Assembly (NCBI RefSeq): GCF_003334315.1
Contig: NZ_QOWR01000007.1
Direction: 5' to 3' (one strand)
DNA: 64,000 nucleotides
Source of the DNA: Escherichia coli
Lineage (GTDB): Bacteria; Pseudomonadota; Gammaproteobacteria; Enterobacterales; Enterobacteriaceae
Below the pieces are notes generated by a model that was given only the letters and a program-made list of their open reading frames with translations, made no database searches and was not told where the DNA came from. Positions 10,128-16,746 of the stretch are shown piece after piece (the first letter of the stretch is position 1; every line of letters starts with the position of its first letter). Made by a program: the position numbers and the translations under genes.

Positions 10128-11405
10128 TTAGCTTGTCGCTAACTGTACTTGCGGTTCTTCATCTTTAACTTTGATAAGCGTCCACAGCGCAATGGCGCCA
10201 ATAATGTCAAAGAAAGCCAGGGCAATAAAGAACGGCGCGAAGCCGATAATGTGAACGAATGCCCCGATAAACAGGTTGAAAATCAACTGACCGCTCCACG
10301 CACAGGCTCCTGCCATACCCACTGCGGTAGCTACTTCGTCTTTTTTGAACAGATCGCCACCCAGAGTTGCTGCTACAGTAGAAAGACATTGATGCGAGAA
10401 CGCGCCAATACTAATCAGTAATACGGCAATGTAGGGATTTTCGACAATACTCACCAGGCCAATCGTCATCATAATGACGGCTGCAATAGTGAAGGTAATT
10501 CTTCGTGAGTTAATTAAACTCACGCCGCGATCGTGGAAGAACTTCGCGACAAAACCACTGGCTAAACAGCCGAGATCGCCCAGCAGGAAAGGCAGCCAGA
10601 CGAACATGGCAATTTCTTTCAGGCTAAAATGCAGCGTTTCGACGAAGAAAATCGGCACCCAGAAGTTAATGGTTCCCCATGCCGGGTCTGCGAGAAAACG
10701 CGCGATGCCAATCCCCCAGAAATTACGTTGGCTGAGGATATGCTTGATTGACGTTTTTTCTTTCTTATCTGTTTTAAGATGCTGTTCTTGCCCTGATTCA
10801 ATATAGTGGCGCTCTTCATCAGAAAGGCGTTTGGCATCTTTCGGATCTTTATAACAAAAGAACCAAAATAAAGCCGCGAGCAAAGCAAGGCTACCTGAAA
10901 CAATAAACGCAAATTGCCAGCTATGAAACATAATGCACCAGGCAATCAACGGTGGAGCAAGCATCGCGCCGAGTGAGGTGCCCATATTGAAAACACCTGT
11001 CGCCACGCCACGCTCTTTTGCCGGGAACCATGTTGATGCGGTTTTTACACCCGCCGGAATTGCCGACGCTTCGCTGAAACCCATCAGGGCGCGCATAAAT
11101 GCCAGACCTGACCACGTTCCGGTTAGTGCATGGCCCATTGTCGCCAGGCCCCAAATTGCGGCACATATCGCAAAACTTAACTTCAGACCCACGGTATCAA
11201 TAAAGAAGCCCATTACCGGTTGCCCTAATGTATAGGCCAACTGGAATGCACTGACAATCCATGAATATTGCTCTTTAGTTATTCCGGTTGTCTCCATAAT
11301 CGTTGGAGCCGCAATACCTAACGCCGTTCTGTCCAGATAATTGATTACAGTGATAAAGCATACGAGGGCAATTATATGCCACCGGTAATTCTTTATTTTA
11401 TTCAT
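10128..11405 (-). CDS. MFS transporter, anion:cation symporter (ACS) family, resembling sugar-acid transporters (ExuT/DgoT/GudP type)
   Basis: 425-aa ORF, about 12 predicted TM segments; N-terminal ITVINYLDRTALGIAAP motif typical of ACS-family MFS; last gene of the island operon; parts look AT-rich by eye. Confidence 0.8.
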   Translation of the reverse strand: MNKIKNYRWHIIALVCFITVINYLDRTALGIAAPTIMETTGITKEQYSWIVSAFQLAYTLGQPVMGFFIDTVGLKLSFAICAAIWGLATMGHALTGTWSGLAFMRALMGFSEASAIPAGVKTASTWFPAKERGVATGVFNMGTSLGAMLAPPLIAWCIMFHSWQFAFIVSGSLALLAALFWFFCYKDPKDAKRLSDEERHYIESGQEQHLKTDKKEKTSIKHILSQRNFWGIGIARFLADPAWGTINFWVPIFFVETLHFSLKEIAMFVWLPFLLGDLGCLASGFVAKFFHDRGVSLINSRRITFTIAAVIMMTIGLVSIVENPYIAVLLISIGAFSHQCLSTVAATLGGDLFKKDEVATAVGMAGACAWSGQLIFNLFIGAFVHIIGFAPFFIALAFFDIIGAIALWTLIKVKDEEPQVQLATS

Positions 11406-11497
11406 GTTTAAACCTTTTAATTATATTAATAAACCCTGGTTGTTGGTGTTTCCGTGTAATAGGTAATAAAAATCAGGTACAGAGGAAATATTGAAAA

Positions 11498-13570
11498 TTA
11501 TTGTGTGTAAATTTCTCCATTTAAAAATTCTGGCCAGTTTTTTTCAAAGTAAATACCGTTAATACACGGTTGCATACGTAAAGACTTCACTTCGGTAATA
11601 AAAGAACCTTGCGAATATTTAATCGTTAATCTGTGATTTTTGTCTTCAGCCCGTTCAGAGCGAAAACGCCATTCTTCTTTTGCGCCGCGACGAGTTTGTG
11701 GGAGGCATTTGCCTTGTGGATCAATAACCATCCGCGCCCCACGACTGCCACCACCTGCGTCAATATAATGCGTCAATTGCGTTAATACCGCGGCCGAAGT
11801 CAGCGCCATATGCCGCCACATAAATAGTTCGGCAATTTCGCCTGCGTGATTGATGGTTAAACCGTGTTGTTGTACAAACTCACTTAGCAGCAGGGCGTCA
11901 CGGGTGGCGTGACGAACTTTATCGGCATGACAAATAAATCCGGCGTAATCAGACATTCGCGCCTGGATTTTTTCTTTCACCGTTACCAGCGCCATTCCGT
12001 TCTCATTTACCAGTGCCTGAGCGATAACTTCTCTGACTATATTCAGAGATGAGGCTACCAGCTGCGCGACATCACCCTCAACAGACCGCTTTTGTGTGCA
12101 ACCAATAAAGCGCGCCAGACGCACGGCAATAACCTGTCCGGCATTCAGCGCCGCACCGCCTGGTCGGGTAACGCCGTGAGTTCCGGCTACTTCTCCCACC
12201 GCAAAACAACCGGGCAGGGATGTTTGTCCCCAGATATCCACTTCAATGCCGCCATTCATGTGCTGATTATTCATGGCGAACTGCAGAGGCTGCGCGGTGA
12301 GATCGTAACCGTGCATCTTATACAGCGAGATAGACAGCGGATTCATTCGTTGCAGCCGTTCGATGGGCGATGCTGCCAGAGCGTCGTTATTTTCCAGATA
12401 CGCGCGAACGTCGTCGTCCAGTCGATCTAATGTGAAGGGCAAATCACCAGGCACCGCTTCAGGATTGCGATTGAAATCCATAAACACCCGACGACCATGT
12501 TGCTGCTCTTGCGCCACCGCCATATCTAACAAGCTGGAGCCAAAATCCATCACCCGAGTGGCGTGGAACGGCCACTGATAGCCTTTACGGAAAATGTTTG
12601 AAGCCAGCTCCTGGGTGGTGCGATAGTAATCCGCGAGGAAGTTATACTCGTTACCCTCAGCATCCACGGAATAGATATACGGGATCACCTGTACATAGGT
12701 GCCGGATAAATTCCACGGAAACGTGCTACGCGGCGTGCCTATACCAAACTGGCTTTCGGTCAGATTGGTTAGCGTCAGGCCTTCCTCCAGCGCCAGCCCC
12801 AGCGAGCCAAAACATTTGTGTGGGTACACACTGTCGCGATAAAGCTCGCCAGGCCCTCCTGTTGCCAGTACCACATTGGGCGCAGTCACAATTGCCAGCC
12901 CCCAAGGGTTATGGGCGCGATGACCGGTCGCGAGGATTGCCCCCGCAACACGGTCTTCGCCGTTTTCGTCACGCTGATGCAGCAGTTTAATCACTGTTGC
13001 ACTGGTCAACACTGGAATGGCGAGGCGCTGTACTTCTTCCAACAGCACTTTCACCATTAACCTTGAGGTACGCGGCCCACACGAGGTTGCACGCCCGGCT
13101 TCGTCATGGTCGGTTTGATAACGAAGAATCGCGCCATAGCGATCTTCCGGTAATTCCAGACCAAGATATTGCAACCCGCCAAGAGTGTGCAGAGAACCTA
13201 CCGCTTCGACATAAGCGGTGTCGTGATCCATCGCCCCACCGCTCGCCAGTGCCTCTGCCAGTTTGGTGAAGTTGTCGCCGTTGCCCGCGGTAGCGGCGGT
13301 AAACAGTGTCTGTTTATCGGAACCAGAACATGCCGACGTCCCCATATATAACCCGGCAGTGGCGATCAGCACATTTTGCTGGCGGCGTTTAAGTTCCACA
13401 GCTGCACGCAGCCCGGCTGCACCACTGCCGACTACCAGGGCATCTGTTTGCCAGAGTGGGTAATCAACACCGTCTACCGTGACAACCCATGCGGGCTCTG
13501 CCTGTGCAAAACCCTTTGGGAAAGTAACGTGCGTCAGCGCATCAAGGATGGTGTCATCAAGCTGACTCAT
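11498..13570 (-). CDS. FAD-dependent oxidoreductase, fumarate reductase/succinate dehydrogenase flavoprotein-like
   Basis: 690-aa ORF; dinucleotide-binding motif DALVVGSGAAGLRAAVEL near N-terminus; 4-bp overlap (ATGA) with the upstream CoA-transferase gene. Confidence 0.7.
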   Translation of the reverse strand: MSQLDDTILDALTHVTFPKGFAQAEPAWVVTVDGVDYPLWQTDALVVGSGAAGLRAAVELKRRQQNVLIATAGLYMGTSACSGSDKQTLFTAATAGNGDNFTKLAEALASGGAMDHDTAYVEAVGSLHTLGGLQYLGLELPEDRYGAILRYQTDHDEAGRATSCGPRTSRLMVKVLLEEVQRLAIPVLTSATVIKLLHQRDENGEDRVAGAILATGHRAHNPWGLAIVTAPNVVLATGGPGELYRDSVYPHKCFGSLGLALEEGLTLTNLTESQFGIGTPRSTFPWNLSGTYVQVIPYIYSVDAEGNEYNFLADYYRTTQELASNIFRKGYQWPFHATRVMDFGSSLLDMAVAQEQQHGRRVFMDFNRNPEAVPGDLPFTLDRLDDDVRAYLENNDALAASPIERLQRMNPLSISLYKMHGYDLTAQPLQFAMNNQHMNGGIEVDIWGQTSLPGCFAVGEVAGTHGVTRPGGAALNAGQVIAVRLARFIGCTQKRSVEGDVAQLVASSLNIVREVIAQALVNENGMALVTVKEKIQARMSDYAGFICHADKVRHATRDALLLSEFVQQHGLTINHAGEIAELFMWRHMALTSAAVLTQLTHYIDAGGGSRGARMVIDPQGKCLPQTRRGAKEEWRFRSERAEDKNHRLTIKYSQGSFITEVKSLRMQPCINGIYFEKNWPEFLNGEIYTQ

Positions 13571-15900: not shown

Positions 15901-15903
15901 TCC

Positions 15904-16746
15904 TTAACAATAATGCGCGATGCGATCGACGCTAATATCCAGCGTGCTGTTAATATCTTTCTGCCACCAGTAAGGCGAGAATATTTCCAGTTCTATAGCG
16001 CCATTAAATCCGGCGTTTTCAACCAGCCGACGAATTGACGGAATATTGATGACGCCATCTCCCGGCATTCCCCGGTCATTGACCAGATCGGTGGTCGGTA
16101 CTAACCAGTCGGAAACATGAAACGCGAGGATGCGTTTTCCGGCACGCAGGATCTGACTGGCGAGCTCCGGATCCCACCAGACGTGATAAACATCCACCGC
16201 CACGCCGAGGCCAAACTCACCATCGGGATCGAGTTCATCACACCAGTCCAGCGCCTGACGTAACGTGCACAGGCAAGAGCGGTCGGCAGCAGTCATCGGG
16301 TGCAGCGGCTCCAGCGCAATTGGCACGCCGACATCTTTCGAATGTGGCAGCAACTGGCGAATCCCTTGTTTTACTTGTTCCCGCGCTTCGTACAAATCTT
16401 TTGTTCCCTGCGGTAACCCGCCAACCACCTGCATATAACAGGCGGCGTTAAGCACCGCTGCGTCGTCCAGCGCCCGGCGGTTATCATCAATCGCCAGTTT
16501 GCGTTCCGCCTGTGTCGGCGCGGTGTAGTAAGTGCTACGGCACAAACCGGAAACGCTCATGTTACTGGCAGCAAGCTGGCGGGCGATTTGCTGGAGATCT
16601 TCACCCTGCAACTCCCTGCGCCAGGGGGCAATTGCGCCAATACCACGCGCGGCGCAGGCATCAATAATGGCGGGTAGAGGCGTTTTATAGCCCAGTGTTG
16701 CGGTATTGATACTGAATAAATCCGGGCGTTGTAACAGATCTCTCAT
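15904..16746 (-). CDS. Sugar-phosphate isomerase/epimerase-like TIM-barrel enzyme (xylose isomerase-like fold)
   Basis: 280-aa ORF; family assignment from overall similarity to the AP-endonuclease-2/xylose-isomerase TIM-barrel family (IolE, UlaE, dehydroshikimate dehydratase); function within that family is open. Confidence 0.7.
   Translation of the reverse strand: MRDLLQRPDLFSINTATLGYKTPLPAIIDACAARGIGAIAPWRRELQGEDLQQIARQLAASNMSVSGLCRSTYYTAPTQAERKLAIDDNRRALDDAAVLNAACYMQVVGGLPQGTKDLYEAREQVKQGIRQLLPHSKDVGVPIALEPLHPMTAADRSCLCTLRQALDWCDELDPDGEFGLGVAVDVYHVWWDPELASQILRAGKRILAFHVSDWLVPTTDLVNDRGMPGDGVINIPSIRRLVENAGFNGAIELEIFSPYWWQKDINSTLDISVDRIAHYC

Follow-up and report, generated by a model that had tools for sequence, protein, structure and literature searches.

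A candidate operon for hexuronate-like sugar acid catabolism in Escherichia coli, built on two protein families with no assigned function

What would Escherichia coli break down with a gene cluster that pairs an importer of the sugar-acid type with a coenzyme A (CoA) transferase? The question is raised by a stretch of 64,000 nucleotides (nt) of contig NZ_QOWR01000007.1 (RefSeq assembly GCF_003334315.1), here called the window, which is E. coli chromosome in the order ulaE-ulaF-yjfY-rpsF-priB-rpsR-rplI, an island, and then ytfB-fklB-cycA. The island between rplI and ytfB consists of seven genes, six on the minus strand and a divergent gene for a TetR-family regulator. A preliminary description of the locus had proposed, from the importer and a TIM-barrel enzyme, that the substrate is an anionic sugar-like compound or a hydroxy-acid. 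That proposal is strengthened, and narrowed to a hexuronate-like acid, by the importer, which has 47% identity to its paralogue ExuT, the hexuronate transporter, by a variant of the island with a hexuronate-type importer of another class, and by genes for 2-keto-3-deoxygluconate (KDG) kinase (KdgK) and 2-keto-3-deoxy-6-phosphogluconate (KDPG) aldolase (Eda) beside relatives of one island enzyme. The six minus-strand genes are probably a sugar-acid catabolic operon built on two families of proteins with no assigned function, and a new variant of sugar-acid catabolism. To the more specific reading, that the operon serves the catabolism of a hexuronate-like sugar acid and is repressed by the TetR protein, we give a probability of about one half.

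The importer of the window is a member of the major facilitator superfamily (MFS). The signature of the ACS family (anion:cation symporters) that had been quoted for it, ITVINYLDRTALGIAAP, forms residues 18–34 of its translation, and the top profile over the full length is TIGR00893 of the same family (315 bits, E=6e-94), with the OPA family as runner-up at 168 bits. Among proteins of solved structure it is closest to DgoT, the D-galactonate transporter (E=2e-40). When aligned with the ACS paralogues of E. coli K-12, with GlpT as the outgroup, the importer was 47% identical to ExuT over its full length and 24–28% identical to DgoT, GarP, GudP and LgoT, and a neighbour-joining tree placed it as the sister of ExuT inside the DgoT/GarP/GudP/LgoT clade. 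Its position among the ACS members, with ExuT, agrees with the earlier assignment. Residues D25-R26 align with D46-R47 of DgoT, the Asp-Arg motif of transmembrane helix 1, while ExuT has Thr where the island protein keeps the Asp. The protein is not an orthologue of ExuT: identity of 47% marks a paralogue, E. coli has its genuine exuT at another locus, and the island holds no uxa or uxu genes. This allele occurs in 1686 E. coli genomes. In the islands of Klebsiella oxytoca and Salmonella (L092, 12128–13405; L093, 12127–13404) the transporter is 48% identical to ExuT and 52% identical to the E. coli allele, compared with 78–94% for the five enzymes, a difference from which we read that the gene has been swapped there for another ExuT-like paralogue.

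A second importer, of a different transporter class, is found in 1446 other E. coli genomes, where the MFS gene is replaced by a tripartite ATP-independent periplasmic (TRAP) system, DctP-DctM-DctQ, after the same enzymes and at the same locus. The TRAP form makes up approximately 46% of the island-carrying strains, its enzymes have about 95–96% nucleotide identity to those of the MFS form, and the two forms part at a switch point within the flavoprotein gene, about 240 nt from its 3′ end (window, 10128–11405; L102, 1886–4730; L006, 12103–14946). TRAP systems import organic acids by means of a conserved arginine in the binding protein (PMC7660916). The best solved relatives of the binding protein WP_000695893.1 are 4OVR, 4X8R, 4N8Y, 4N15, 4N91, 4MIJ and 4MHF (E=1e-70 to 1e-59); 4N91 and 4MHF bind glucuronate or galacturonate, 4X8R is glucuronate-bound, 4N8Y is galacturonate-bound, and 4N15 (Bamb_6123) served solely as the modelling template for a glucuronate binder (PMC7660916, PMC11668362). 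Residues N31, Q32, R146, R166, N206 and D233 of the island protein correspond to the glucuronate contacts N35, Q36, R150, R170, N210 and D237 of STM3169. This comparison was made by position and not by alignment, and it finds six of the seven contacts at a constant offset, the exception being E74, which is Q70 in the island protein. We also count 4OVR and 4N15 as presumably hexuronate-binding. The importer has been exchanged repeatedly, each time for a carboxylate carrier, and both E. coli versions resemble hexuronate carriers. The exchange of two hexuronate-like importers is the strongest evidence on the class of the substrate.

The enzyme block that these importers serve is present in 3115 of 5426 complete E. 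coli genomes (57%), the probiotic strain Nissle 1917 included, and all seven genes between rplI and ytfB are also found in K. oxytoca and some Salmonella. Across genera the five enzymes retain the amino acid identities given above, with a ratio of nonsynonymous to synonymous substitution rates (dN/dS) of 0.03–0.07. Since the identical gene set occupies the identical locus in Klebsiella and Salmonella, and the enzymes are this constrained, the arrangement is not due to chance. Recent horizontal transfer is ruled out by an unremarkable GC content, by synteny in three genera and by a divergence like that of core genes; a decaying remnant is ruled out by open reading frames (ORFs) that are intact in about 3100 genomes and by the dN/dS of the five enzymes. 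The island looks like an old enterobacterial locus that has been kept by selection and lost in some lineages. In K-12 the island is absent and the site is occupied by yjfZ and a truncated TetR pseudogene, ytfA (L086, 3629–5096), while in O157 Sakai, also without the island, yjfZ and a copy of IS609 are at the site (L097, 481–3588). These genes look like scars of island replacement, and ytfA is a remnant of the TetR gene of the island. In several E. coli strains IS1 has inserted inside the island, in the MFS gene in H56 and within an 8.5-kb block in H1–H4, which suggests ongoing inactivation in some lineages.

The neighbourhoods of the flavoprotein relatives link the enzymes to the same kind of substrate. 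We clustered the neighbours at 80 loci from species-representative genomes, which were used instead of metagenome contigs because contigs with flavoprotein relatives were too short to inform. The commonest neighbour is a short-chain dehydrogenase/reductase (SDR), at 34 of the 80 loci, and four contexts recur. Phycisphaerae and other Planctomycetota have an iron–sulphur (Fe–S) reductase of the old-yellow-enzyme type, an SDR, Eda, sometimes a BNR_4 protein, the flavoprotein and KDG kinase. Alphaproteobacteria have a CUT1 sugar ABC transporter, two GMC oxidoreductases, Dabb and LacI proteins, a Gfo/Idh/MocA protein that is levoglucosan-dehydrogenase-like (308 bits), the flavoprotein, KdgK and sometimes Eda; kdgK follows the flavoprotein gene in 14 alphaproteobacterial loci, and KdgK and Eda occur together in the Phycisphaerae. 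Enterobacterales, Verrucomicrobia and Lentisphaeria bring SDR, Gfo/Idh/MocA protein, TIM barrel and flavoprotein together, to which the Enterobacterales add a TetR gene and an MFS gene. The last context contains the CoA enzymes. Its fullest version is a run of eleven co-directional genes in the Betaproteobacteria bacterium MS502-56 (L013, 25–12109), encoding CoA-transferase, crotonase, DctPQM, a MaoC hydratase, an acyl-CoA dehydrogenase, EtfB, EtfA, the TIM barrel and the flavoprotein. CoA-transferase and crotonase also adjoin the flavoprotein in Rubellimicrobium and in a Desulfobacterales genome, they share a cluster with KdgK in Devosia, and four further loci have a crotonase at their truncated edge. 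Drawing on these four recurrent contexts, we conclude that the flavoprotein family works in the catabolism of sugars or sugar acids ending at KDG, that SDR, TIM barrel and flavoprotein are its conserved core, and that the CoA-transferase/crotonase pair is a recurrent add-on and not an accident of E. coli.

Two of the clusters met in this survey are of interest in their own right. Six Phycisphaerae loci of about 5.6–14 kb (L054, L063, L067, L071, L076 and L080) contain a conserved string of the kind described above, in which some of the Fe–S old-yellow-enzymes carry a fused GltD-like domain and to which an MtnA-like isomerase is added; it hints that Planctomycetota have an anaerobic route for sugar acids that has not been described. 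In Sinorhizobium meliloti (L099, 5442–12172) the TIM barrel SMc04130 lies with a TetR_C_29 regulator, four Gfo/Idh/MocA proteins, a DUF993 protein, an enolase-superfamily-like protein and a CUT1 ABC transporter. The SMc04130 cluster is an orphan sugar pathway itself and points to keto-sugar chemistry.

The flavoprotein, the most informative of the proteins and one on which the preliminary description did not draw, belongs to the first of the two families with no assigned function. Its sole Pfam match is PF00890 (E=1.7e-27, residues 43–475), its sequence matches to NadB, FrdA and SdhA are weak among both profiles and PDB entries, and the equivalog profiles score far below their cut-offs. Its predicted model, with a mean predicted local distance difference test score (pLDDT) of 91.7, has the complete SdhA/FrdA architecture of flavin adenine dinucleotide (FAD)-binding, capping and C-terminal helical domains, at template modelling (TM) scores of 0.65–0.77 and approximately 17% identity, and Foldseek aligns it to SdhA/FrdA over about 670 columns at E of about 1e-29. 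Alignment with E. coli FrdA and NadB shows that the carboxylate-binding R390 of FrdA is kept as R469. The histidine of covalent FAD attachment is absent, and the protein probably binds FAD noncovalently. FrdA H232, in the capping domain, becomes N287, and FrdA H355 becomes Q436 with H437 adjacent. A family-specific insertion, FRKGYQWPF, replaces the region of FrdA R287, the proton-shuttle arginine, and GSDKQT is a further signature motif. Function as a fumarate reductase, succinate dehydrogenase or L-aspartate oxidase was rejected, as R390 is the only part of the site that is kept and the flavinylation His is missing. A search of the full database gave 422 clusters at 50% identity (E<1e-30), none of them informatively named; the family is large, uncharacterised and spread over Proteobacteria, Planctomycetota, Verrucomicrobia and Lentisphaerae. 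As uses of the flavoprotein we also considered a furan-carboxylate (hydroxymethylfurfural acid), a 3-deoxy-aldonate, ether cleavage and C5 epimerisation, and we claim none of them.

The second such family is that of the TIM barrel, which matches PF01261 (E=2.5e-38) and has no NCBIfam match. Its solved relatives are 3QC0 and 3JU2, both Sinorhizobium SMc04130 (E=7e-85), and 7VPF, a Paenibacillus "putative sugar isomerase" (E=9e-62), with 41–50% identity and TM scores of 0.88–0.89 to the island protein, and none of the three has an assigned function. The next fold neighbours are IolI, Art22, ketose 3-epimerases, QuiC1, Hyi, YcjR, UlaE and AsbF, and the model (pLDDT 88.9) superposes on UlaE (0.76), AsbF, QuiC1 and IolI at TM scores of about 0.70–0.76. 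The predicted metal ligands E146, D185, H210 and E254 align with those of UlaE of the same window and are invariant in the family. The Pfam match, the superposition and the metal site uphold the earlier description of a xylose-isomerase-like TIM barrel that shares its fold with UlaE and dehydroshikimate dehydratase. UlaE is itself a second PF01261 TIM barrel in the window (6316–7170), about 9 kb upstream of the island, and the proximity looks coincidental, as the two proteins are only 20% identical. For both families the structure search gave answers at the level of the superfamily only, SdhA/FrdA for the flavoprotein and structures without a known function for the TIM barrel. The assignment of the TIM barrel as a 3-dehydroshikimate dehydratase (AsbF, QuiC1 or QsuB) is not supported: identity is 14–20%, and the Foldseek E-values, of about 1e-10 to 1e-12, rank these enzymes below IolI, Art22 and ketose 3-epimerases.

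The other three enzymes are of familiar kinds. The SDR carries the TGxxxGIG and YxxxK motifs, and its NCBIfam match is PRK12745 at 420 bits, which places it in an uninformative "3-ketoacyl reductase" family; the profiles of KduD, FabG and glucose dehydrogenase score 115–140 bits, and its solved relatives 4DA9 and 4ONE are both uncharacterised. It is not KduD (2-dehydro-3-deoxy-D-gluconate 5-dehydrogenase), for which TIGR01832 gives 117 bits against a cut-off of 339. The CoA-transferase matches YdiF (2AHU) over residues 6–508 with E=1.8e-113, its E324 is the catalytic Glu333 of YdiF, its two halves match the profiles of subunit A and subunit B, and PF01144 is recorded in its orthologues. The crotonase-fold protein matches short-chain enoyl-CoA hydratase profiles (E=4e-44), and its nearest solved relatives are 3-hydroxypropionyl-CoA dehydratase and crotonase. 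Its translation contains the motifs GGGIELA and NPEVMLG, which we take to be the catalytic-Glu motifs (E144 and E164 of rat enoyl-CoA hydratase). With the Glu of the CoA-transferase, the Glu motifs of the crotonase, the metal ligands of the TIM barrel, and the FAD fold and Arg of the flavoprotein, the enzymes of the operon look catalytically competent.

The layout of the island is given in Table 1. The gaps between the genes of SDR, TIM barrel, crotonase, CoA-transferase and flavoprotein are 9, 9, 9 and −4 nt, the last being an ATGA overlap of the CoA-transferase stop with the flavoprotein start, and 92 nt separate the flavoprotein gene from the MFS gene. The features stated in the preliminary description are all there. 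Its interval, 10128–16746, holds five tightly packed minus-strand ORFs, from the MFS gene to the TIM barrel, which are five of the six operon genes, and leaves out the SDR gene and the gene of the regulator. Two E. coli database entries, P0018 (1078 residues) and P0029 (1043 residues), contain CoA-transferase (PF01144) and flavoprotein (PF00890) in one ORF; they are consistent with the ATGA overlap and may be frameshift artefacts or natural fusions.

Table 1. Features of the island, with positions counted in the window
Feature	Position	Strand	Basis or remark
ACS-family MFS importer	10128..11405	-	Last operon gene; ExuT paralogue; TIGR00893 best profile
Soluble 690-residue flavoprotein of the SdhA/FrdA/NadB superfamily	11498..13570	-	PF00890; SdhA/FrdA fold in model
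Family I (YdiF/Pct-type) fused CoA-transferase	13567..15108	-	YdiF 2AHU match; PF01144 in orthologues
Crotonase-fold enoyl-CoA hydratase/dehydratase	15118..15894 (alternative ORF start 15900)	-	Enoyl-CoA hydratase profiles
Xylose-isomerase-like TIM barrel, SMc04130 subfamily	15904..16746	-	PF01261
Classical SDR oxidoreductase	16756..17547	-	First operon gene; PRK12745
Candidate TetR operator, perfect 8+8 palindrome	17615..17636	.	TetR/SDR intergenic region
TetR/AcrR-family regulator, TetR_C_29 type	17759..18406	+	RefSeq annotation of identical island

The regulator gives weak matches to TetR-family profiles, has PF00440 and PF17938 recorded in its orthologues, and is encoded divergently from the operon. 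The divergent promoter region contains the palindrome ATCAACCA-N6-TGGTTGAT, which we take to be a candidate operator of the TetR protein. It is kept with at most two mismatches in Escherichia albertii, K. oxytoca and Salmonella, amid intergenic sequence that has diverged on either side.

How these proteins might act together is proposed as follows. In this strain the acid would enter through the ExuT-type proton symporter; in strains of the TRAP form a high-affinity TRAP system would take it up. Its sugar skeleton would then be remodelled by the SDR, the metal-dependent TIM barrel, acting as an isomerase, epimerase or eliminase, and the SdhA-like flavoprotein: the SDR could oxidise a hydroxyl or reduce a keto group, the TIM barrel could isomerise the sugar or carry out a β-elimination beside the carbonyl, and the flavoprotein could dehydrogenate or reduce the bond α,β to the carboxylate. 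The YdiF-type CoA-transferase might convert the acid, or an intermediate, to its acyl-CoA, and because this would acidify the α-proton the crotonase could remove or add a β-oxygen substituent, which in a uronate would be the C4 oxygen and in an aldonate the C3 hydroxyl. This would yield a 2-keto-3-deoxy acid of the KDG or DKI type, to be taken over by the chromosomal KduI/KduD, KdgK and Eda. The TetR protein would presumably sit on the conserved palindrome until the substrate, or an intermediate, releases it. The analysis shows the gene content, the hexuronate-like character of both importers and the linkage of the flavoprotein family to KdgK and Eda; we infer the sequence of reactions and the CoA-dependent elimination, and we hold the specific order with much less confidence than hexuronate-like catabolism as such. 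In its complete form the proposal is a previously undescribed CoA-dependent hexuronate-type route, in which a uronyl- or aldonyl-CoA is made, the crotonase carries out the β-elimination that polysaccharide lyases and UxuA-type dehydratases perform, and the SdhA-like family acts toward KDG; this remains tentative, and we think it more probably wrong than right. As to the substrate, it would be D-glucuronate or D-galacturonate, or more probably, because E. coli already metabolises both, a close derivative or epimer beyond the reach of UxaC, UxuB and UxuA. Speculatively, candidates are 4-O-methyl-glucuronate, L-iduronate, mannuronate or guluronate, and an unsaturated or deoxy uronate.

Several observations weigh against catabolism of a hexuronate-like acid by this scheme. 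Plain hexuronates would be redundant as substrates, as E. coli has a complete pathway for glucuronate and galacturonate. The operon encodes no thiolase, aldolase or kinase, and the role proposed for the flavoprotein is vague. Many flavoprotein relatives that adjoin KdgK have no visible CoA enzymes. In Brenneria the SDR, TIM barrel and flavoprotein are coupled to a PcaK-like aromatic-acid:H+ symporter (369 bits). The TIGR00893 score of the E. coli importer, 315 bits, is below the curated cut-off of 395 for the subfamily, which is why NCBI names the protein merely "MFS transporter", and the TRAP binding proteins beside distant flavoprotein relatives are 26–36% identical to that of E. coli, which was too low for them to serve as a guide to the substrate, so they were dropped. 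Full-text literature searches found no publication on the operon, and the searchable literature contains no hexuronyl- or hexonyl-CoA, that is, no uronyl- or aldonyl-CoA of hexose size.

The same genes can also be read as a pathway akin to β-oxidation that degrades a short or deoxy hydroxy-acid: 3-hydroxypropionate, for example, a lactate-type acid of three to five carbons, or a sugar acid of the 2-deoxy or 2,3-dideoxy kind. Here the flavoprotein would desaturate the acid at its α,β bond, the CoA-transferase activate it, the crotonase hydrate it and the SDR oxidise the 3-hydroxyacyl-CoA, with a housekeeping thiolase to finish. The set is indeed a β-oxidation cycle without the thiolase, and the reversed gene order matches the sequence of reactions; the CoA-transferase is YdiF/Pct-like, the crotonase is nearest to 3-hydroxypropionyl-CoA dehydratase, the SDR falls among "3-ketoacyl reductases", the L013 and L072 loci add acyl-CoA dehydrogenases, electron transfer flavoproteins and MaoC hydratases, and the deoxyribonyl-CoA pathway of Klebsiella michiganensis is a precedent (PMC6365646). 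This scheme, however, leaves the TIM barrel without a role; SDR and flavoprotein are widespread without CoA enzymes, beside KdgK and Eda, and both E. coli importers resemble hexuronate transporters and not carriers of short-chain acids, for which reasons we consider it unlikely. Alternatively, the compound to be degraded or reduced could be a hydroaromatic or aromatic carboxylate akin to quinate, shikimate, dihydroshikimate or protocatechuate, with the TIM barrel as ring dehydratase, the SDR and flavoprotein as ring dehydrogenase and ene-reductase, and the ring then handled as a CoA ester. The TIM barrel shares its fold with AsbF and QuiC1, and some databases automatically name its Sinorhizobium homologues "3-dehydroshikimate dehydratase"; the symporter of Brenneria fits such a substrate, the MFS protein of Pseudescherichia scores equally as AAHS and ACS, and the acyl-CoA dehydrogenases of L072 resemble cyclohexanecarboxyl-CoA dehydrogenases. 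The likeness of fold to dehydroshikimate dehydratase that had been pointed out is confirmed, but quinate or shikimate as substrate is the weaker option: identity to AsbF and QuiC1 is low (14–20%), and ketose epimerases and IolI score equally well or higher. The ExuT-like MFS protein and the hexuronate-type TRAP binding protein also point elsewhere, as do the links of the relatives to KdgK, Eda, a levoglucosan-dehydrogenase-like enzyme and sugar ABC transporters, and we find this reading quite improbable.

A further candidate substrate would be a conjugated uronate, a glucuronide or O-substituted uronic acid, cleaved by oxidation and elimination along the lines of LgdB, BT2157 and the C-glycoside lyase systems: a dehydrogenase would make the keto-sugar, the TIM barrel would eliminate the substituent, and CoA-transferase and crotonase would handle an acid aglycone. 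The pairing of the TIM barrel with Gfo/Idh/MocA proteins would fit this scheme, seen in the SMc04130 cluster (four genes, with a sugar ABC transporter), in Pseudescherichia, in Verrucomicrobia and in Lentisphaeria, as would the levoglucosan-dehydrogenase-like neighbour (308 bits) and adjacent GMC oxidoreductases of Alphaproteobacteria, and the Devosia cluster joins KdgK to CoA-transferase and crotonase. The E. coli operon, however, contains no Gfo/Idh/MocA gene, nothing points to an aglycone, and the substrates known for ExuT-type carriers and for hexuronate TRAP binding proteins are all monosaccharide acids, which leaves the scheme a slim chance. Finally, the flavoprotein could be an electron sink, a terminal reductase that acts on an imported α,β-unsaturated carboxylate much as fumarate, urocanate, acrylate or cinnamate reductases do. 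The imported acid would then serve redox balance under anaerobic conditions and not supply carbon. Its SdhA/FrdA fold and carboxylate-binding Arg would suit this role, and in Phycisphaerae family members stand beside Fe–S enoate reductases of the old-yellow-enzyme type. Against this, the operon has no gene for an Fe–S subunit, and no electron-input domain, cytochrome or membrane anchor either, five catabolic-type enzymes accompany the flavoprotein, and the relatives are linked to KdgK and Eda; as the flavoprotein has no partner for electron input, we regard such a role as very improbable.

Comparison with known systems places the operon near uronate catabolism, although its enzymes fit none of the known sugar-acid pathways. 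The Ashwell pathway (ExuT, UxaC, UxuB/UxaB, UxuA/UxaA, KdgK, Eda) likewise combines an ExuT-type importer with an isomerase-type enzyme and a reductase, and a 2-keto-3-deoxy acid for KdgK and Eda is a likely shared end point in view of the KdgK and Eda genes beside flavoprotein relatives; unlike it, the island has no homologues of UxaC, UxuB or UxuA, and has a TetR regulator instead of ExuR/UxuR. To our knowledge, a CoA-transferase, a crotonase and an SdhA-like flavoprotein occur in no described uronate route, whether the Ashwell, the oxidative, the fungal reductive, the KduI/KduD or the DhuI/DhuD route. The KduI/KduD and DhuI/DhuD systems for 5-keto-4-deoxyuronate resemble the island in having an isomerase-like protein beside an SDR, leading toward KDG, but KduI is a cupin and DhuI is RpiB-like, whereas the isomerase candidate of the island is a PF01261 TIM barrel. 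The hexuronate TRAP systems (STM3169-71 of Salmonella, Bamb_6123, Apre_1383 and Bpro_3107) are the nearest to the island DctP, which keeps two Arg, an Asn and three more contacts; the known systems are linked to uxuAB/uxaC and the island system to its own set of enzymes. With the wider PF00890 superfamily, which includes soluble fumarate, urocanate and acrylate reductases and KstD, the flavoprotein has the three-domain fold and FAD motifs in common. The SMc04130 cluster of Sinorhizobium shares with the island the TetR_C_29 type of partner, and has neither flavoprotein nor CoA enzymes nearby.

The pairing of a sugar-acid importer with a CoA-transferase, which the preliminary description had called unusual, has one precedent among the systems that we found, and that precedent uses different enzymes. 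In the deoxyribonyl-CoA pathway of K. michiganensis M5al, MFS permeases bring in a sugar acid, which the cell then metabolises in the form of CoA thioesters (Price et al. 2019, PMC6365646). The deoxyribonate cluster contains a CoA synthetase, a β-hydroxyacyl-CoA dehydrogenase, a thiolase, a lactonase and a glycerate kinase, and no TIM barrel, crotonase or SdhA-like flavoprotein (PMC6365646). The island does not match this cluster, as it has no CoA synthetase, β-hydroxyacyl-CoA dehydrogenase, thiolase or glycerate kinase.

That the operon has not been studied is probably explained by its loss from K-12. Sugar acids such as glucuronate are key nutrients of Enterobacteriaceae in the gut and in macrophages, and an additional uronate-type pathway with a high-affinity TRAP variant could matter for colonisation. 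Assignment of the operon would give a function to the SdhA-like family, with more than 400 clusters, and to the SMc04130-type TIM barrels, for which there are three structures, and it might establish CoA-thioester chemistry in sugar-acid catabolism at the hexose level. If the CoA-dependent route is true, it might account for the use, by E. coli and by many environmental bacteria, of a uronate derivative such as 4-O-methyl-glucuronate, L-iduronate or an unsaturated or deoxy uronate.

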